From Candidatus Omnitrophota bacterium (GTDB taxonomy: Bacteria > Omnitrophota > Gorgyraeia > Zapsychrales > Fredricksoniimonadaceae), in contig JADFWS010000002.1 of NCBI GenBank assembly GCA_015234065.1, positions 1-39,817 on the forward strand: a stretch of DNA of 39,817 nucleotides, in the 5' to 3' direction. Both the position numbers and the translations under genes were made by a program. The first letter of the stretch is position 1. Every line of letters starts with the position of its first letter. The notes under the pieces are model-generated. The model searched no databases and was not told where the DNA came from. It saw only the letters and a list, made by a program, of their open reading frames with translations. This document shows, piece after piece, positions 5,364 to 26,263 of this stretch.

Positions 5364-5812
5364 TAATTTTTACCATACAACATATCCAGGCTCCACGCAG
5401 ACGCCTTTGTCCTGTTCTTCAAACATAAAAACGCCGTCAGAAACATCGCCAGATCGAGAAAGAATACGCCCTGAAGCGGCCAATGGACCAGATTGCCGAA
5501 ACACCCGCAATCATTGATCGGCAGTTTGCGGATGATCGCCTGCCCCACCACGATCATCAGCGCGCCATTAAGAAGCATCGACGCGCGCAGCACCCAAACG
5601 AGCCACAACCCGGTTATCATAAAAATACCGGTTAAAAGTTCAAACCAGGGAAAAGCCGCAGCTATAAAAGCTTCGCTGCCGGAAGGGACTATTTTGTACG
5701 CCTGAAGGACATAGATAAAGTTCTCGACCGGGGAGGCGGCCTTCTCAACCCCGGAAACAATAAAGATCCCGCCAAGAATAATCCTGAGGATCAAAAAAAC
5801 ATTAATGGACAT
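5363..5812 (-). CDS. MauE/DoxX-family redox-associated membrane protein
   Basis: 149-aa ORF with four hydrophobic segments and a CGC motif (NDCGCFGN). It overlaps the DsbA-like gene by 11 nt. Confidence 0.7.
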   Translation of the reverse strand: MSINVFLILRIILGGIFIVSGVEKAASPVENFIYVLQAYKIVPSGSEAFIAAAFPWFELLTGIFMITGLWLVWVLRASMLLNGALMIVVGQAIIRKLPINDCGCFGNLVHWPLQGVFFLDLAMFLTAFLCLKNRTKASAWSLDMLYGKN

Positions 5813-6422
5813 GGCCTTCCACCACCTCTGTCAGCAACTTGCGGAAATTTTCGCCGCCAACCGCCATCTTGCCGTTCACCACAAAAGACGGCGTCGCACT
5901 GATCCCAATATCTTTTCCCTCTTCCATATTGCGAAGGATATGACCTTCGGTCAAAGGATTCTTCAGGCAGAATTCGAGGCGCTTGCCGTCCATGCCGAGC
6001 GACGCGGCCAGGCCGGTCAAATATTCATCCGGCGACCCAAGCGTACCCCAGCTTGTCTGGGTCTTGAACAGGACATCATGCATGGGCCAGAATTTCCCCT
6101 GCTCGGACGCGCACTCCGCGAACGCGGCGGCCCGGCGGGCATTCTTATGCATGGGCAACGGAAAATACTTCATTTCAAAATGGACCTTGTTGCCGTACTT
6201 CTTTAGCTCTTCGTCAACAACGCCCGATGCCTTGGCACAGGCAGGGCATTGAAAATCCGTATATTCGATGATCTCAACCTTGGATTTCGGATCTCCTTTT
6301 AAATGATTGAGATCATGCGTCACCTTTTTCGTCGGCGGCGCGACATGCCCTTTGGCAACCGCCATCACAACCGCGGCAACCGCCAGGATCAATGCAGTCA
6401 GAAGAATCTTTGAAACTTTCAC
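5802..6422 (-). CDS. DsbA-family thiol:disulfide oxidoreductase (thioredoxin fold, membrane-anchored or exported)
   Basis: 206-aa ORF with a GTG start preceded by GGGAGG, an N-terminal hydrophobic anchor and a CPAC active site (YTDFQCPACAKA). Confidence 0.85.
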   Translation of the reverse strand: MKVSKILLTALILAVAAVVMAVAKGHVAPPTKKVTHDLNHLKGDPKSKVEIIEYTDFQCPACAKASGVVDEELKKYGNKVHFEMKYFPLPMHKNARRAAAFAECASEQGKFWPMHDVLFKTQTSWGTLGSPDEYLTGLAASLGMDGKRLEFCLKNPLTEGHILRNMEEGKDIGISATPSFVVNGKMAVGGENFRKLLTEVVEGHVH

Positions 6423-9869: not shown

Positions 9870-12059
9870 TCAAAATGACGGCGTCGCGGCTGTCAGAGAA
9901 ACCGTGATCGTCGTCCCCTGTTTATACACCGACTCAAAGCGGATCTTGCCTTCATGATTCTCTTCGACGATCTTCTTGATGACGTACAAGCCCAGGCCCG
10001 TGCCCTTTTTGCTCGTGGCTTTCGTTGTAAAAAAAGGCGTAAAAAGCTTTTTGGCATCCGCTTCCTTGACCCCGATGCCATTATCAATAAAAATAATGTT
10101 CAAACACCCGTCGCGCTGTTCCACCTGCACCCGCAACAACGGCTGATACCCCTCTTCCTGAAGTTCGGCCTTGCGTTGCATCATGGCATCATAGCCATTA
10201 TCGATCATATTAAAAAATACTTCCTGAAGCTGGGTGAAATTCCCTTTCACCTTCGGGATCGTGGCCGTATCGTATTCCTTGGCGATCTTCATCACGCCCT
10301 GCTTGATCTTGAACTGCGCCATTTCCCACGCTGAATTAAAGATCTGATCAATATCATTCGCGGTAAAGCCTTCCTCGCCTTTACGCGTATACTTCATCAG
10401 CCCCTGCACGATCTCACGCCCGCGCACCACATTCTCTTCCAGGCGGCTTAATCCGAAATCAAATTCTTTCGAGATCTCCTGAAGCTTTTCGCTCGCCTGA
10501 AAATGGTCCTGGCTTAATTTCAACGTGTCACGCATATCGCCCGCGATAAACCCCATGGCATGCAACCGGTTATTGATCTGATGCGACAGCCCGTCCGCCA
10601 TGGTGCCGATCGTGGCCATTTTCTCCGCATCAAACAACTGTTGTTGCGTCCGCTTCACATCTTCATAGAACTGGGCATTCTCGATCGCCAGTGCCGATTG
10701 ATTCGCGAGGATCGTAAACACCGAAATATCATCTGCGCTATACGGCGCACCCTGCGGCTTGACCCCGAGAACAAGGAACGCGGCCATGCGCCCGTCGATC
10801 ACACTCGGCACCAGCATCGCCGCCTTAAGCCAGGAAAGCTCAAGCGCAATGGCCGACAACCCGATCTTTGACGCGCGGGACGCCTGATGCCTCAGCTCGT
10901 CCGGAAGGACCGGAACGCCCTGCTCACGGATATATTGAATAAAGGAGGTCTTTTCCGGGATCGCGGGCGGGAAAGATACGCCCTTATCCCTCGACAGCGC
11001 AGACCCGAGGATATACTTCCCTGAAGACTTGTCCAGCACATAAACCACGCAGTGCTCGGGCTTGACCGCACGCATGACGATACGGGCGATCAGCTTGATG
11101 AGCTTTTCCAGATCCTTGATATGCCCCATGCCGGACGAGGCCTGGATCAGGGTCTTCTGATACCGCCGCTGTTCCGCGAGCAGGCGGTCTTCTGTCCGCC
11201 GCTGGATAAAATAATACACGAACGGCCCGGCGGTCGCGAACACCACCGCCAGTGTGATCGGCACAAAAACCCATGCCTCACCAAAATGTGCCTGCAACGT
11301 CGTGCGCCATACTGCGGCCAGCCAATACGGCCCTCCGAGCACGATCGCATAAACAACAAGCAACAGTGCGGCGCGCGACATGGCCAAACGCACATCCAAA
11401 AGCCGGTGACGAATGACCGCGTACGCGATAAGCAGGCTGTACGCCACGACCAGAATATCGTGCGACACCACTTCACGAAATCCAAATGCCGTCGAAAAAT
11501 GGATCAGGCCGCTGATGAACGCCAGCGCAAAGGCGATCCCGATATAACGCAACTGATTGCGCTGTTGTCCGGTAGCCACCCAGTACTGCTGTAAAAGCTT
11601 TTTGGAAGCGTACATGTATGAGAACGCAAAATACATGATGAAGAAAAGATACCACGGCCCGGGAACCAGGCTGTACCCATAATGGTTGGGCCGCAGGTCC
11701 GCAATAAACCCGCTGGTCATCGCCTGCATGCCAAGCCCTGTCGACACCGCAAGAGCCGCCCAGAAAACACGGCGCGTCATGGGCCGCTCGATCAACCCCA
11801 GCAGATTAGCCATGAAGAAAATGAACGCGGCCGGCACATACAGCGCCGGAAAATAAATAAGGCGCAACCAGAAAATCATCGGGTCTTTCGCAATAGCCAG
11901 GGAGGAAACGAACGGAAAAAACGACCATATCCCGATAAGGGCGGTGACCAGGGCAAAAGAACGCTGTACCGCCGCCTGAAGCCCCCGGGTCAGAATAAAG
12001 ACCGCGAGCGTCCAGCAGAAGATCCCGGCGAACAGCGAAAGGAAAGGAAACCACTTCAT
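9870..12059 (-). CDS. Sensor histidine kinase with a multi-TM N-terminal domain, GAF-like domain, HisKA and HATPase_c
   Basis: 729-aa ORF with about 7-8 hydrophobic segments in the first ~300 aa. The H-box is MADGLSHQINNRL, and N/G boxes are present (MIDNGYDAM, DNGIGV, GTGLGL). ATGA overlap with the upstream reductase-like gene. Confidence 0.9.
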   Translation of the reverse strand: MKWFPFLSLFAGIFCWTLAVFILTRGLQAAVQRSFALVTALIGIWSFFPFVSSLAIAKDPMIFWLRLIYFPALYVPAAFIFFMANLLGLIERPMTRRVFWAALAVSTGLGMQAMTSGFIADLRPNHYGYSLVPGPWYLFFIMYFAFSYMYASKKLLQQYWVATGQQRNQLRYIGIAFALAFISGLIHFSTAFGFREVVSHDILVVAYSLLIAYAVIRHRLLDVRLAMSRAALLLVVYAIVLGGPYWLAAVWRTTLQAHFGEAWVFVPITLAVVFATAGPFVYYFIQRRTEDRLLAEQRRYQKTLIQASSGMGHIKDLEKLIKLIARIVMRAVKPEHCVVYVLDKSSGKYILGSALSRDKGVSFPPAIPEKTSFIQYIREQGVPVLPDELRHQASRASKIGLSAIALELSWLKAAMLVPSVIDGRMAAFLVLGVKPQGAPYSADDISVFTILANQSALAIENAQFYEDVKRTQQQLFDAEKMATIGTMADGLSHQINNRLHAMGFIAGDMRDTLKLSQDHFQASEKLQEISKEFDFGLSRLEENVVRGREIVQGLMKYTRKGEEGFTANDIDQIFNSAWEMAQFKIKQGVMKIAKEYDTATIPKVKGNFTQLQEVFFNMIDNGYDAMMQRKAELQEEGYQPLLRVQVEQRDGCLNIIFIDNGIGVKEADAKKLFTPFFTTKATSKKGTGLGLYVIKKIVEENHEGKIRFESVYKQGTTITVSLTAATPSF

Positions 12060-21903: not shown

Positions 21904-22593
21904 TTACGGCCTGACCGCTTTGGGGACCAGCAAACGCCTGGGATCTGCGGCCAAAAAAAGGCCTTTCTGCAAACCAGGGCTTTCAGTAGTTCTAAACGAC
22001 GGCCAGGTAGACTGGGCCGCTGTCCATTCATCCAGGATATTCAACACATATTCAAATCCTGGGCGAATAAGCGGCACGCCGCCGAATTTGACTTTTTCTT
22101 TCGTGCCATCCATATCCAGTGTGCCGACATATGTGGCCACATTGGCTGCGACCTTAAAATCCAGTTCCAGTGTTTCTTCAGCCTTCGTCGAGCCAACCGG
22201 GATCGCGATAGTCGTGACCTTATACTCCCCGACGGGCAAAGACAGCCCAAAATACCCCGGCTCGATCACCCGGCCCTCGCCCCAAGGCACCACACTTAAA
22301 TTAGCATGGCTCCCGACAAAGAAATAATACTGCTTCGCCGGGTCTTTACGATCCACGATCGTAAGCCGAACATACGCCGCTTTAAGAAGCCCTTTAAAAT
22401 CTGTTTTTCCGAAGATCGTGCCGGTCACCACGGCCTCGGCCACCGGCTTACTCACCACAATGGGCGTGATCGTGGCCTCAACCGCAGGCACGCGCTTGCC
22501 CAAGGACGGCACAACAACCCCGCTTTGCCGCGGCAAAGACGCGCACCCGGCGCAAAACAAAAAACAAATGGTGATCAGGATTTTTTCTGCCAT
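21904..22593 (-). CDS. Hypothetical lipoprotein
   Basis: Start trimmed to MAEKILITICFLFCAGC (lipobox), because the longer ORF start would lie inside the terminator U-tract. I recognise no motif. Confidence 0.6.
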   Translation of the reverse strand: MAEKILITICFLFCAGCASLPRQSGVVVPSLGKRVPAVEATITPIVVSKPVAEAVVTGTIFGKTDFKGLLKAAYVRLTIVDRKDPAKQYYFFVGSHANLSVVPWGEGRVIEPGYFGLSLPVGEYKVTTIAIPVGSTKAEETLELDFKVAANVATYVGTLDMDGTKEKVKFGGVPLIRPGFEYVLNILDEWTAAQSTWPSFRTTESPGLQKGLFLAADPRRLLVPKAVRP

Positions 22594-22621
22594 AGGTAAT
22601 GGCAGTTTAACGTGCATTTCG

Positions 22622-22652
22622 AAAAAAAACAAGCGGGGTCTCCTAGCCCCGC
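22622..22652 (-). terminator. Rho-independent terminator of the 921-aa gene
   Basis: On the minus strand: GCGGGG-CUAGGAGA-CCCCGC followed by UUGUUUUUUUU. The hairpin is 21/22 identical to the one at 25727-25748. Confidence 0.8.
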
Positions 22653-22682
22653 CTGATAAATATTATTTATTTGACATTTCAT

Positions 22683-22722: not shown

Positions 22723-25488
22723 TTACGCCGAGGAACCTGCCATGGCTGCCTGGCTAAAAAGCGGCAGCGTGGTCGCGGGCTTGATATCCAGGATCACGGG
22801 TACCAGTCCGTCGATTTGAATATTGTCCAGATTCTGCTGACTGATCGGAAGCGGCATGCCCTTGCCATCCCGTTTGATCTGCATATTCAAGGTGGAAGAA
22901 TTAAGGTCGATACCACCATAGGGTACATTAGGCTGATTCATCGCGTTTTCGCCTTGATCCATCAACGCTTGTTTAGCAACTACAAAACCCCTGACATCAG
23001 CAATAAAATAGAGGCCTTGAGTCTTAGCCGTATTCATATCAGCTTCCCGCTTATCCCCGGCATCAATCTTCCAATTTGTAATAAAATCATTCAGCCTATC
23101 ACTCGATATCTTAATATTGTTAAGCGCAGCCCTCACAGCCATCTTATCTTGTCCATCTTCCGCTGATTGGAAGGCCTGCAAATTTTTTATCATGTTTTTC
23201 ATTTCTTGGTGAATCATTGCGTCAGACCACATAACTTTTTCAAAATTGACCAACGCCTTATAAGCCTGATGAACAATTTCCTCCGTCGTCATCGCGTTGT
23301 TGGCATAATAGTCAATCATTTGTTGAACGAACAAACCCGCCGTGCCTGCCATGAAAATGGCAACAGCAATTTCCCAAAGATTTCCCTTAACGGTGGGCCA
23401 CACATGTATCTTAAGCGCTTCACGCCATGTTATATCTTTAGGCGCCATTCTGGCCGTCTTCAACGCGTCAACCTGACTCAACAGATTATCAACCGCGTTA
23501 ATAGCTCGGCTGTATTCTTTACGCAATTCCTCTTCAATTCTCGCTTTAACTTTCTCCACATTAACAGCATCCTTAACAACATTATTAACAACGTCCTTAA
23601 AAAGACTATTAAAACCATCATTAACATCATCATTAAAACCATCATCAGCCACATTATAATTATATTTATATTCCGTAAGTGCTATCTCAACAGCCTGCCC
23701 TGCCGTAAGTAAGCCATCTAGCTGTCCATTCTTAATTTTCTCTAACTGATTCTGTAAAACCACTAATGTCAGCGCAAAAATTCTGCCTTTCGCCCGTGGA
23801 AGTGCTCTTAAATTTATTTCATTTCTCCGGGCACCGCCTTTACCTGCAAAACCCCTCACCGCATAGTGAAGATCTCCCCGCTCTATCTGGTATGCTGCCT
23901 CTGCCGCCAAGCTCCTCTCACGCAAATAACCCGTCGCACCAGAAAGAAGGCCGTTGCCGGATATCATCGCGGCATTGCCTTCAATTGTGGCCCTGAAAAT
24001 AACAAATGGGATTCCCGGAGCGTCAGGGCCGTTTTCTTGATATACATCTAATACAGGGATAGCCCATACACCGGCGGCTCTCGCTTCTTTTTCCGCTGCT
24101 AAAAGTTGCACCTGCAATAATTGCCGCTGGTCTCTTACAAATTCATTCCACGTATCAGCAGTAACCTGCATACCTGGCGGGGCAAGAATTTTAACCCCAA
24201 CCTCATAATGCCCACCCTTTGCATTTTTCGCATGCTCAGCCACGGATGAAATAAAAACATCATTTGCCGTTACCTGACCTGTTGTCGAATTTGATGGCGC
24301 TATGATCGTCATCGCGGATTCATTCGTATTATTCCTCTTGCCCGGCGTATGCTGATTAAAAACAGTCGGAACAAGATCAGACCCTGATGCCACCGTATCA
24401 GCTACGTTAGGAGGTACTACGCCCTGAGCACCCCGCATTGCCACCACCATATTCGGTATTGCCATCGCATTGTCATACCCACCCGAAAAATACTTGCGCG
24501 GGATCACTTCCTGGGTAAAACGGTCCGTATCTTCCTTGATCATACTGAACACGCCTTTTTTAAACGCCTGCGTGTATTTTTCGAAGATCTCGACATTATT
24601 CTTCGGATCCTGATCAACGCCCTTGATCTTGGACCGGTCGCCATATACTTTGGTAAGGATCGATTCCTTGAGTGCCAGCTTGTACCAGGTAGCCAGAAGC
24701 ATTCCACTATATATCTGACGCAAGGGTGCAAAATTCTGGCCTTCGTTCACTTCTTTCTCGATCGCCGGAATAATGACCTCGCGCATGACCGACAGGGAAA
24801 TCTTGCCAACATCTTTCTGCGCCGACTCATCGTCAGCCACGTTGTTCTTCATGGCCAAATAATCCGTTTCCGTCATCACCTTGAGGCTGCTCTCGAGCAC
24901 ATAGACCACATTATCCTTCTGATACAACTTGACCGTGCTCGGCACGATCCAGACCTTGCTGAACGTATCCGTCGGAACATCTGTGGTGCCGAACTTTTCA
25001 TACGCCTTCTGATACACACCGTCCCAAAACTTCTTGCCGAGGTCTGTGTCGGGATTGGTTAACGACGCGGAGATCTGTTTTAAAATATAGTCCTGCGCCA
25101 GAAGGTCGCGGCCCATTTCGGTCTGGCCGAAATTATCCGCCACAATGCGGTCTTTTTCATACGGGGACAAGTTCACCCACTGGTCTGTTTCCGGGATCGC
25201 CAGCGCCGCGAGAAAATACTTGATGAGCTTGGTATATTCTTCCTGCTTCTGATCCGCGGCCAGGGTTTCATTTCCGCGATGAATGATAAAATCAAACTTG
25301 AAGGGGTTCTGCGGATCGATCACCATGCCCCGCAGATGCGCCGGCGTATACGCCGCACTCATGCCCATCTGAACGCCAGGCTCCGGCATCATGCCGACCG
25401 CGCTCATGACCTGCGCATATCCAGCCGGCGGCATAATGCCATTCAAAATAAACGCCGCAAGCACGAGCCATAACATTGTCTTTTTCAT
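22723..25488 (-). CDS. Large secreted/envelope protein of unknown function, compositionally mosaic
   Basis: Start trimmed to MKKTMLWLVLAAFILNGIMPPAGYAQV (signal peptide), with AAGGGGG upstream. The ORF is uninterrupted. It has a GC-rich N-terminal module, an AT-rich centre and a C-terminal GGIDLN...IDGLVPVILDIKP module. I recognise no catalytic motif. Confidence 0.8.
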   Translation of the reverse strand: MKKTMLWLVLAAFILNGIMPPAGYAQVMSAVGMMPEPGVQMGMSAAYTPAHLRGMVIDPQNPFKFDFIIHRGNETLAADQKQEEYTKLIKYFLAALAIPETDQWVNLSPYEKDRIVADNFGQTEMGRDLLAQDYILKQISASLTNPDTDLGKKFWDGVYQKAYEKFGTTDVPTDTFSKVWIVPSTVKLYQKDNVVYVLESSLKVMTETDYLAMKNNVADDESAQKDVGKISLSVMREVIIPAIEKEVNEGQNFAPLRQIYSGMLLATWYKLALKESILTKVYGDRSKIKGVDQDPKNNVEIFEKYTQAFKKGVFSMIKEDTDRFTQEVIPRKYFSGGYDNAMAIPNMVVAMRGAQGVVPPNVADTVASGSDLVPTVFNQHTPGKRNNTNESAMTIIAPSNSTTGQVTANDVFISSVAEHAKNAKGGHYEVGVKILAPPGMQVTADTWNEFVRDQRQLLQVQLLAAEKEARAAGVWAIPVLDVYQENGPDAPGIPFVIFRATIEGNAAMISGNGLLSGATGYLRERSLAAEAAYQIERGDLHYAVRGFAGKGGARRNEINLRALPRAKGRIFALTLVVLQNQLEKIKNGQLDGLLTAGQAVEIALTEYKYNYNVADDGFNDDVNDGFNSLFKDVVNNVVKDAVNVEKVKARIEEELRKEYSRAINAVDNLLSQVDALKTARMAPKDITWREALKIHVWPTVKGNLWEIAVAIFMAGTAGLFVQQMIDYYANNAMTTEEIVHQAYKALVNFEKVMWSDAMIHQEMKNMIKNLQAFQSAEDGQDKMAVRAALNNIKISSDRLNDFITNWKIDAGDKREADMNTAKTQGLYFIADVRGFVVAKQALMDQGENAMNQPNVPYGGIDLNSSTLNMQIKRDGKGMPLPISQQNLDNIQIDGLVPVILDIKPATTLPLFSQAAMAGSSA

Positions 25489-25713: not shown

Positions 25714-25752
25714 GCAAAACAAAACGAGCGGGGTCTCCTTGCCCCGCCCGTT
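25714..25752 (-). terminator. Rho-independent terminator of the 117-aa orphan gene
   Basis: On the minus strand: GCGGGG-CAAGGAGA-CCCCGC followed by UCGUUUUGUUUUG. Confidence 0.75.
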
Positions 25753-25788
25753 CGTTAGGAAATGCCTCTCCCAAAATACAGCCAAGCT

Positions 25789-26142
25789 CTAGGCAAGCGC
25801 GGCCGGATCTTTCGAGGAGAGAACATGGGTTTTCCAATGCATTTGAACCGTCAAACTATGACAATAATCAACTTTATAAATGAAGCGCCCTTTGGTCGTG
25901 TAGATAATACCCTTCACTTTCAGGAAAAACGCTTCATCCTGGCCTTCATTCATAATACGCTTCGTCACATGGATCTCGGGCACCGGAATATCTTTCGGCA
26001 CCGCATCCGCCCGTGACAGGATATACACATAATTCTTCATACTGCGCGAATCACATTCCTGGTCGCTCAAGGCCTCACGCACAGAGACCACCCGACCACG
26101 ATTTTCCGGAAGACTTCTTTTTTTATAGGTCACATTCTTCAT
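25789..26142 (-). CDS. Hypothetical 117-aa protein (orphan)
   Basis: Start trimmed to MKNVTYKK because GGAGG lies 5 nt upstream of the ATG at 26142. The gene is AT-rich, has its own terminator, and carries no motif I recognise. Confidence 0.55.
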   Translation of the reverse strand: MKNVTYKKRSLPENRGRVVSVREALSDQECDSRSMKNYVYILSRADAVPKDIPVPEIHVTKRIMNEGQDEAFFLKVKGIIYTTKGRFIYKVDYCHSLTVQMHWKTHVLSSKDPAALA

Positions 26143-26263
26143 ATTGTCCTCCACCGCCTTCATATTCGAAGGATAACATCTGTTCACCAGGCAAAACAAG
26201 ATGTGCGGAGGGTTTTCGGGAAAACGTTATCTTACGACGGGAATACAGATCAGGCTGGTAATT

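Follow-up and report, generated by a model that had tools for sequence, protein, structure and literature searches.

The DNA considered here, hereafter called the window, is a stretch of 39,817 nucleotides (nt) from a Candidatus Omnitrophota bacterium (assembly GCA_015234065.1, contig JADFWS010000002.1, positions 1 to 39,817). On its minus strand lies a gene for a protein of 921 amino acids (aa), whose two ends are conserved throughout a large protein family and whose centre is variable and AT-rich. As a preliminary description of this DNA had stated, the protein is encoded by a single uninterrupted open reading frame (ORF) and begins with a signal peptide. The features of the gene and its borders are listed below, where GC3 denotes the GC content at third codon positions.

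22723..25488, minus strand: family gene, complete coding sequence with ATG at 25488 and stop codon at 22723-22725, 921 aa
25494..25500, minus strand: ribosome-binding site AAGGGGG, 5 nt 5' of the ATG, read from the sequence
25411..25488, minus strand: Sec-type signal peptide, aa 1-26, consisting of MKK, a hydrophobic core, and PPAGYA|Q
24478..25410, minus strand: N-module, aa 27-337, with the motifs QWVNLSP.E, T.MG..L..DY.LK, G..FW, K.W, and YF.GG
22918..24477, minus strand: variable centre, aa 338-857, an ORFan with a linker of low model confidence at about aa 338-565 and long predicted helices at aa 567-846
22900..24432, minus strand: low-GC3 block, codons 353-863, GC3 0.40 inside and 0.67 outside
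23560..23655: imperfect 12-nt tandem repeat of about 8 units, which imposes a four-residue periodicity on the protein
23311..23382, minus strand: hydrophobic helix, aa 703-726, LWEIAVAIFMAGTAGLFVQQMI, maximal Kyte-Doolittle value 1.78 over 19 aa
22750..22917, minus strand: C-module, aa 858-913, with the family consensus GGID(F/L)...L..QIKRDG.GVPLP.SQQNL.NI.IDGLVPVIL.I.PA.
22723..22749, minus strand: variable C-terminal tail, aa 914-921, and stop codon; length and sequence differ among homologues
about 22630..22655, minus strand: hairpin resembling an intrinsic terminator, followed by a T run, 3' of the family gene
about 25722..25753, minus strand: terminator-like hairpin 5' of the gene and 3' of a 136-aa ORF, with 26 of 28 bases the same as in the downstream copy

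The AAGGGGG motif favours the ATG at 25488 as start over a GTG further upstream (25530). The leader of the window protein has a hydrophobic core with a Kyte-Doolittle value of 1.68; across the family, the leader consensus is M-(R/K)-K, a hydrophobic stretch, and MPPxGFAQ. A lipobox-like cysteine occurs in the leader of 42 of 93 homologues. The window protein has a glycine there (ILNG), and the lipobox cysteine expected of a bacterial lipoprotein was not found in it, the whole protein being free of cysteine. The 517 codons of the AT-rich centre are all without a stop codon. As there is a hairpin on each side, the family gene looks like a single transcription unit. These two copies are the only ones in the 39.8-kb window, and none was found in 87 other loci; the pair may have arisen by duplication of a terminator, or it may mark the site of an insertion or duplication event.

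The family is held together by the two end modules. Aa 1-337 of the query were aligned in all 119 listed homologues, with 48-71% identity in local alignments, and aa 858-913 were common to at least 109 of the 119, with 55-79% identity and always at the homologue's own C-terminus. Depending on the alignment, 41-49 residues of the N-module are invariant, many of them aromatic or charged; the invariant motifs of the C-module are GGID(F/L), RDG.G.PLP..QQ, and GL.P.I..I.P. The window protein satisfies every invariant column of both modules, and the hidden Markov models (HMMs) built for the modules match the same ORF. All four N-module motifs and the C-module motif quoted in the preliminary description are conserved motifs of the family. 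When the module HMMs were applied to all ORFs of 80 loci, each ORF carrying a C-module only was explained by a locus edge or by a split N-module ORF. Therefore, the modules always travel together, and the family has a three-part architecture with an obligatory pairing of N- and C-module. In five loci (L012, L014, L017, L030, L039), the family gene is split, with an N-module ORF adjoining a C-module ORF; these genes could be pseudogenes, sequencing errors or programmed.

Searches of Pfam and NCBIfam with the whole protein gave no match at E≤1, PHROGs and PADLOC yielded nothing, and sequence searches of the PDB with the whole protein and with an N-module profile found no match. The sole library match of the whole protein was to Cas1 (E 0.013), which was taken as noise.

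A protein database search gave at least 3,994 related clusters at E≤0.001, and those that are named are almost all 'Candidatus Omnitrophota/Omnitrophica'. Species-representative genomes (one genome per species) contain at least 564 family loci; the labels of these records are mostly Omnitrophota, with many 'uncultured Planctomycetales' and a few Ca. Elulimicrobium, Elusimicrobia, and Bacteroidales. The genomes behind the 80 loci retrieved have 2-5 complete N-modules each, and tandem arrays are common; elsewhere in the window, no paralogue of the family gene was found. A description of the family was not found in the searchable literature, and the literature on Omnitrophota treats giant genes, type II or Tad-like secretion loci, and lifestyle. 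A phage origin of the family was ruled out, as it occurs in only 3 of 2.9 million viral contigs (IMG/VR). These three contigs (L085-L087), which are classed as viral, encode family members whose N-module is about 50% identical; phages may truly carry the gene, or the contigs may be misclassified or of proviral origin.

In contrast to the ends, the centre of the window protein is an ORFan. An exhaustive phmmer search with aa 341-857 against 1.84 billion representative proteins returned the protein itself and nothing else, peptide patterns of the centre had no confirmed match in 241 million metagenome records, and about aa 465-745 were aligned by none of the 119 listed homologues. A word-index search with the centre was empty as well; note that it missed even the own protein, which the exhaustive search recovers, so that this negative is weak. 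The centres of 117 homologues fall into 103 unrelated clusters and are between 158 and 1,203 aa long; short members of the family have a total length of about 580 aa. The proposal of the preliminary description, an exported protein with conserved ends and a variable middle, is thus borne out by the family, including the homologue at the locus L006 described below, whose centre is unrelated to that of the window protein.

The composition ascribed earlier to the whole centre (Asn/Asp/Lys/Val-rich) applies to about aa 600-660; overall, the centre is rich in Ala, Val, and Asn (13/9/8%). A hydrophobic stretch had likewise been pointed out and corresponds to the helix of aa 703-726. Hydrophobic windows with values above 1.6 occur in 41 of 117 homologue centres and are not a constant of the family. 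The 12-nt repeat encodes the Asn/Asp/Val-rich series DDGF NDDV NDGF NSLF KDVV NNVV KDAV at the most AT-rich spot of the window, suggesting that local expansion of repeats contributed part of the centre. In the family protein of L006 (6001-10452), a segment of about 190 residues is duplicated almost exactly within the centre; therefore, centres can also enlarge by big tandem duplication.

A Pfam domain is present in only about 15-20% (roughly one in six) of the centres. Eight tabulated proteins pass the Pfam cut-offs, and further families were listed by E-value only. Adhesion and repeat domains comprise fn3, LysM, TPR, HEAT, and hexapeptide repeats, and one protein is named a WD40 repeat protein by its source. 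Hydrolases are represented by GH26, metallo-beta-lactamase, and metallophosphoesterase domains. Domains of a cytoplasmic type are S-adenosylmethionine (SAM) methyltransferase, GT2, HD, NUDIX, NmrA, cNMP-binding, receiver, RNA polymerase alpha C-terminal domain (CTD), and PP-binding; low-molecular-weight (LMW) phosphatase and AvrB_AvrC are effector-like.

The low GC content of the centre had been noticed earlier on the basis of counts in 60-nt lines, and these were right within a few points. We determined 0.667 for 25321-25380, 0.617 for 22741-22800, 0.25 for 23581-23640, 0.417 for 23041-23100, 0.433 for 24241-24300 (slightly above the claimed 38-42%), and 0.383 for 24541-24600; for the first three lines, 67, 63, and 25% had been counted. 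The segment 23581-23640 has the lowest GC content of all 663 60-nt bins of the window, and the eight lowest-GC segments of 600 nt in the whole window are all within 22801-24100. In the window gene, GC3 is 0.67 for the N-terminal 340 codons, 0.66 for the last 64 codons, and 0.40-0.43 for three sub-blocks of the centre. The GC3 of the 32 other window genes is 0.64±0.04, which places the centre about 6 standard deviations below them. The GC3 expected for the centre from its own amino acids and the codon usage of the window is 0.64; therefore, the observed dip is not a by-product of amino-acid composition. A two-breakpoint likelihood model for the low-GC3 block gained 34 nats, and its breakpoints are about 15 and 5 codons away from the independently determined homology borders at aa 337 and 858.

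For a comparison across the family, 49 genes from 45 loci were analyzed, each against its own flanking genes. The mean GC3 was 0.531 for flanking genes, 0.525 for the N-module, 0.544 for the C-module, and 0.406 for the centre. The GC3 of the centre is lower than that of its own N-module in 49 of 49 genes and below background in 47 of 49. The p-values obtained for the shift with two scripts were 2×10⁻⁹ and 9×10⁻¹⁴. The window gene has the fourth most extreme AT shift of the centre. In hosts with a GC3 of 0.23 to 0.78, the GC3 of the centre tracks that of the host with a slope of 0.69 (r 0.80). The shift is confined to codon position 3 (-0.124, versus -0.012 and -0.006 at positions 1 and 2) and was also seen in two loci, L029 and L042, that appear from their contig names to be long-read assemblies. 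That it is family-wide and restricted to position 3 speaks against one recent import as well as against chimeric assemblies. As a candidate cause, alleles may have diverged so far that they no longer recombine, and a force favouring GC, be it biased gene conversion or selection at synonymous sites, would then act more weakly there; another candidate is repeated replacement from an AT-rich accessory pool.

The ratio of nonsynonymous to synonymous divergence (ω) and the synonymous divergence (dS) were computed for the two orthologous pairs with DNA at hand. For P0114/P0115, ω was 0.024 in the N-module, 0.04 in the C-module, and 0.17 in the centre, with a dS of 1.12 for the N-module versus 0.66 for the centre. 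For P0071/P0080, the corresponding ω-values were 0.09, 0.27, and 0.46, with a dS of 0.46 versus 0.27. The ends are thus under strong purifying selection, and the centre is 4-7 times less constrained yet under net purifying selection. A local hypermutation of the centre was ruled out, as its dS is not raised. At the protein level the divergence is graded: N-module identities of 95, 93, 91, and 90% are accompanied by centre identities of 85, 77, 63, and 30%. In addition, outright replacements of the centre occur at N-module identities of 92-96%. The same-genome paralogues L027 and L031 have N-module DNA that is 92.4% identical over 1,077 nt, then unrelated centres, and then a C-module of 170 nt with 81% identity; the centres of P0096/P0101 and of P0092/P0118 are unrelated despite N-module identities above 92%.

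For 45 of 61 genes, the nearest N-module relative is found in another genome. Therefore, most paralogues are old and their ends are held by selection; on the same grounds, general concerted evolution or gene conversion of the ends was ruled out. The closest N-module relative of the window protein has an identity of only 71%, so that an unalignable centre is expected from divergence and import is not needed. The preliminary description had considered a middle that is possibly exchanged horizontally. The idea of an exchangeable middle holds in part, as outright replacement does occur (L027/L031) next to graded divergence in place; as a cause of the AT-rich centre, horizontal exchange found little or no support, given that no donor-like relative was found and that the shift is limited to position 3 and tracks host GC3. 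In agreement with the description, the centre is less conserved than the ends, the GC dip goes beyond amino-acid composition, and the whole protein matched no characterised family.

The family avoids cysteine. The window protein contains none in 921 aa, and 120 family members have a median of 0 Cys past aa 35, compared to 1.08% Cys in the other proteins of the window. Cysteine is likewise missing from enzyme-bearing members of 950-1,500 aa, and the single Cys of the member with an LMW phosphatase is that of the catalytic CX5R motif. Avoidance of cysteine is typical of envelope-crossing proteins that avoid disulfides, such as flagellins, autotransporter passengers, RTX proteins, and S-layer proteins. 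The genes for a FadL-type outer-membrane protein and LpoB, together with that for a DsbA-like protein, indicate that the organism is a diderm; a Cys-free family in a diderm with a DsbA-like protein matches the pattern of envelope-crossing proteins.

The full-length protein was modelled with AlphaFold2 and 70 homologues. The N-module is predicted as an alpha/beta fold with a predicted local distance difference test (pLDDT) score of 85-96 over most of aa 35-280 and of about 60 at aa 101-120. For the C-module, the pLDDT is 64-94 and two strands are predicted; a predicted terminal helix (aa 909-920) is mostly within the variable tail. The centre is poorly defined and largely helical, with long helices at aa 567-846 of low to moderate confidence. 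Foldseek found no analogue, neither for the full-length model in the PDB and BFVD nor for a model of the N-module alone in the PDB. The best E-values were 0.06-0.7, and all matches were helical look-alikes with TM-scores below 0.2; a resemblance to helical proteins of the ClyA/NheA/CagA type was dropped as unsupported.

The neighbours on the same strand as the family gene are ordinary chromosomal genes. Upstream are LepA, signal peptidase I (LepB), a small lipoprotein, a CDP-alcohol phosphatidyltransferase (PgsA), PlsY, and the 136-aa ORF; downstream are a lipoprotein, a peptidoglycan-binding lipoprotein, and a PfkB kinase. Farther away, the window encodes a GspE/PilB-type ATPase, RodA, and the DsbA-like, FadL-type, and LpoB proteins. 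Three of these genes need coordinates:

25789-26199, minus strand: 136-aa ORF upstream of the family gene, no Pfam domain
21904-22632, minus strand: downstream lipoprotein, 229 aa as called, likely start ATG 22593, lipobox FCAGC
5802-6422: DsbA-like gene within the window

The locus L006 is fully syntenic with the window. The identities to the window counterparts are 87% for LepA, 70% for LepB, 59% for PgsA, 69% for PlsY, and 52% for the 136-aa ORF; past the family gene, they are 57% for the peptidoglycan-binding lipoprotein and 49% for PfkB. Its family gene has an N-module 64% identical to that of the window protein and an unrelated centre of 1,090 aa. In place of the window lipoprotein, L006 has two overlapping ORFs (10496-11229), which by eye resemble a HEPN/nucleotidyltransferase toxin-antitoxin pair; the slot 3' of the family gene seems to take up accessory genes. 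The preliminary description had called this region the most accessory-like part of the window. This is at odds with the position of the gene within a conserved housekeeping block reaching from LepA, LepB, PgsA, and PlsY to PfkB. Likewise, the upstream gene considered an orphan is conserved in syntenic loci (52% identity in L006 and, more weakly, 29% in L048), and the downstream lipoprotein, which has no Pfam domain and a host-like GC3, has 33 homologues in Omnitrophota.

The interpretation that accounts best for these findings is one of constant export or anchoring modules combined with a variable payload; we assign it a probability of roughly 55%. After Sec export, N- and C-module would carry out a step common to all members, possibly crossing the outer membrane, becoming attached to it, or engaging a delivery apparatus that all members share. 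The two modules may co-fold, which would make the centre effectively an insertion. The centre would be the payload, evolving several-fold faster than the ends and sometimes being replaced outright; depending on the member, it carries adhesion-type domains, enzymes of a cytoplasmic type or, as in the window protein, an ORFan helical segment. The three-part architecture with its obligatory pairing, the contrast in selection between ends and centre, the ORFan nature of the centre, the family-wide AT shift at third positions, and the avoidance of cysteine are observations. We infer export beyond the periplasm; the ends could plausibly serve in targeting or anchoring, and the payloads would presumably act in interactions or as effectors in the host- or prey-dependent lifestyle proposed for the phylum.

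Several points weigh against this interpretation. By sequence or fold, the end modules are unlike any known sorting or secretion domain, and a handling role of the ends is suggested by the architecture. The signal peptide of the window protein was assigned from sequence features. The payload of the window protein is an ORFan helical segment with no recognisable domain, and its specific role is a guess. No conserved neighbour or partner gene family was found across 81 loci, the best candidate being present in 9 of 81. When modelled alone from a shallow alignment of 28 sequences, the N-module reached a pLDDT of 52. Covariation between N- and C-module (mutual information with average product correction) is weak: the pair N68-C44 has a z-score of 5.1 and rank 59 of 31,375 pairs, and N299-C47 has a z-score of 4.6. 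Finally, the conservation of the N-module, with its 41-49 invariant residues, would also fit an enzyme or binding domain as the main function.

In its design, the family resembles cargo of the type IX secretion system (T9SS), TpsA proteins, MARTX toxins, and flagellin; it lacks testable defining features of each and should not be filed under any of them. Like the family, T9SS cargo has a Sec leader, a variable payload, and a beta-rich conserved module at the extreme C-terminus of many unrelated proteins per genome. In contrast, the C-module of the family is shorter (about 55 aa), occurs in another phylum, and is combined with a conserved N-module of 310 aa that the cargo lacks. The models of the Por secretion tail (type A or B sorting domain) in NCBIfam and Pfam did not match the whole protein, and no T9SS component was among the scanned genes of the 39.8-kb window. 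As in the family, the signal peptide of TpsA exoproteins, CdiA included, precedes a conserved N-terminal domain (about 250-300 aa), and these exported proteins are large, variable, and Cys-poor. Here, however, the variable part is central, the C-terminus is conserved, and the N-module is predicted to be alpha/beta with long helices rather than a beta-helix. Pfam gave no match to the Haemagg_act domain of two-partner secretion (TPS) in the window protein, and no TpsB-like (Omp85-type) gene adjoins the family gene, whose neighbours in the window are housekeeping genes and which has no conserved neighbour in 81 loci.

MARTX toxins have conserved ends around a mosaic centre of effector domains that act in the cytoplasm and vary between strains by recombination. 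The bracketing of a mosaic centre by conserved N- and C-terminal regions is common to both; glycine-rich repeat ends, type I secretion without a Sec leader, and a releasing cysteine protease domain are specific to MARTX. In the window protein, no Pfam or NCBIfam match to glycine-rich repeats, a type I signal or a cysteine protease domain was found, and a Sec-type leader is present. Flagellin has conserved termini that fold together, a hypervariable and often compositionally atypical surface centre, and no cysteine. The window protein differs in having a Sec leader and an N-module six times as long as the C-module, and some centres of the family carry enzymes; there was no Pfam match to Flagellin_N or Flagellin_C and no PDB match in sequence or fold. 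Polymorphic toxins (Rhs, contact-dependent inhibition) are similar in that a constant trafficking part is combined with a variable part exchanged among paralogues or strains, and in their lineage-specific expansion. Their variable toxin is C-terminal and accompanied by an immunity gene, whereas the variable part of the family is internal. No co-varying downstream gene was seen beside the family gene, that of the window being a conserved lipoprotein and that of L006 the unrelated HEPN/nucleotidyltransferase-like pair. An anchor beta-barrel of the autotransporter or YadA type had no Pfam match, and the C-module has about 55 aa and two strands, the end of the protein not being aromatic. A signal of the PEP-CTERM or LPXTG type had no NCBIfam match, and the last 64 aa are without a hydrophobic helix or basic cluster.

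A more far-reaching proposal, which we regard as tentative, is that the modules constitute an unrecognised sorting or effector-delivery system of Omnitrophota with a role like that of the T9SS C-terminal domain or the TPS domain, serving hundreds of payloads per lineage. If this were true, the payloads would include enzymes workable only inside the cytoplasm of another cell, and the AT shift at third positions would mark a distinct evolutionary regime of payload segments. In the effector-delivery version of the preferred interpretation, the ends would be a translocation handle by which Omnitrophota-specific effectors are sent into prey or host cells. It is attractive that a Sec leader and avoidance of cysteine are combined with payloads that need cytoplasmic cofactors or partners (SAM methyltransferase, GT2, NUDIX, cNMP-binding, receiver, RNA polymerase alpha CTD, NmrA), that the LMW phosphatase has an intact CX5R motif, that one payload belongs to the effector family AvrB_AvrC, and that a predatory or host-dependent lifestyle has been proposed for the phylum (PMC10066038; bioRxiv 10.1101/2023.11.21.568195). 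On the other hand, only about 15-20% of the centres have a Pfam domain, some of them of the adhesion type (fn3, LysM, TPR, HEAT); neither a release protease nor a pore-forming repeat nor an immunity gene was detected; and the centre of the window protein has no enzyme domain. Translocation is a conjecture, and this version, though possible, is unproven.

The main rival places the function in the ends: N- and C-module would together make up a single conserved domain that acts as an enzyme or binds a ligand, and the centre would be a tolerated, weakly constrained insertion or spacer. The low ω of the N-module (0.02-0.09) and its many invariant aromatic and charged residues are in agreement with this possibility, as are a full-length model in which the C-module has a pLDDT of up to 94 and the N-module beside it is predicted confidently, the weak covariation between the final strands of the two modules, and the fact that most centres are domain-free and that of the window protein is poorly predicted. 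We nevertheless consider it unlikely, because selection on the centres is purifying on balance (ω 0.17-0.46), long ORFs are maintained in their AT-rich sequence, enzyme domains that exceed the Pfam cut-offs are intact in several of them, and their lengths (158-1,203 aa in 117 homologues) would be unusual for a spacer.

Somewhat less probable still is that the AT-rich centre is a recent cassette from a donor of lower GC content, which was recombined in via the conserved ends. The GC3 contrast of 0.40 versus 0.67 with sharp breakpoints at the module borders would be expected from such an event, and the same-genome paralogues with 92% identical N-module DNA and unrelated centres, as well as P0096/P0101 and P0092/P0118, show the kind of exchange that it postulates. 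These findings are offset by the absence of a relative of the centre among 1.84 billion representatives and metagenome contigs, by a shift that affects the whole family (47 of 49 genes below host background), scales with host GC3, and is confined to position 3, and by the 12-nt tandem repeat, which points to growth in place. An assembly artefact, that is, a chimeric contig in which the assembler switched paralogues inside the repeated modules, is very improbable: although the modules are multi-copy with up to 92% identical DNA within one genome and no sequencing run was found for this DNA, both flanks are syntenic with L006, which has its family gene at the same place, so that two switches would be required, the frame is intact over both junctions, and the GC3 pattern was found in 49 of 49 genes, including L029, L042, and L033, whose names suggest long-read or hybrid assembly.

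Constant modules that export or anchor a variable payload thus remain our preferred interpretation. The new element is a very large family, so far undescribed and essentially restricted to Omnitrophota, with two new conserved modules and a family-wide compositional signature confined to third codon positions. The AT shift at position 3, bounded at the module borders, provides a clean natural case for studying how GC content is maintained at synonymous sites. Omnitrophota are widespread, uncultivated, and ultra-small, and a life as dependants or predators of other cells has been proposed for them; the family could make up part of the surface or effector repertoire of this phylum, and its modules are specific candidates for a new sorting signal.

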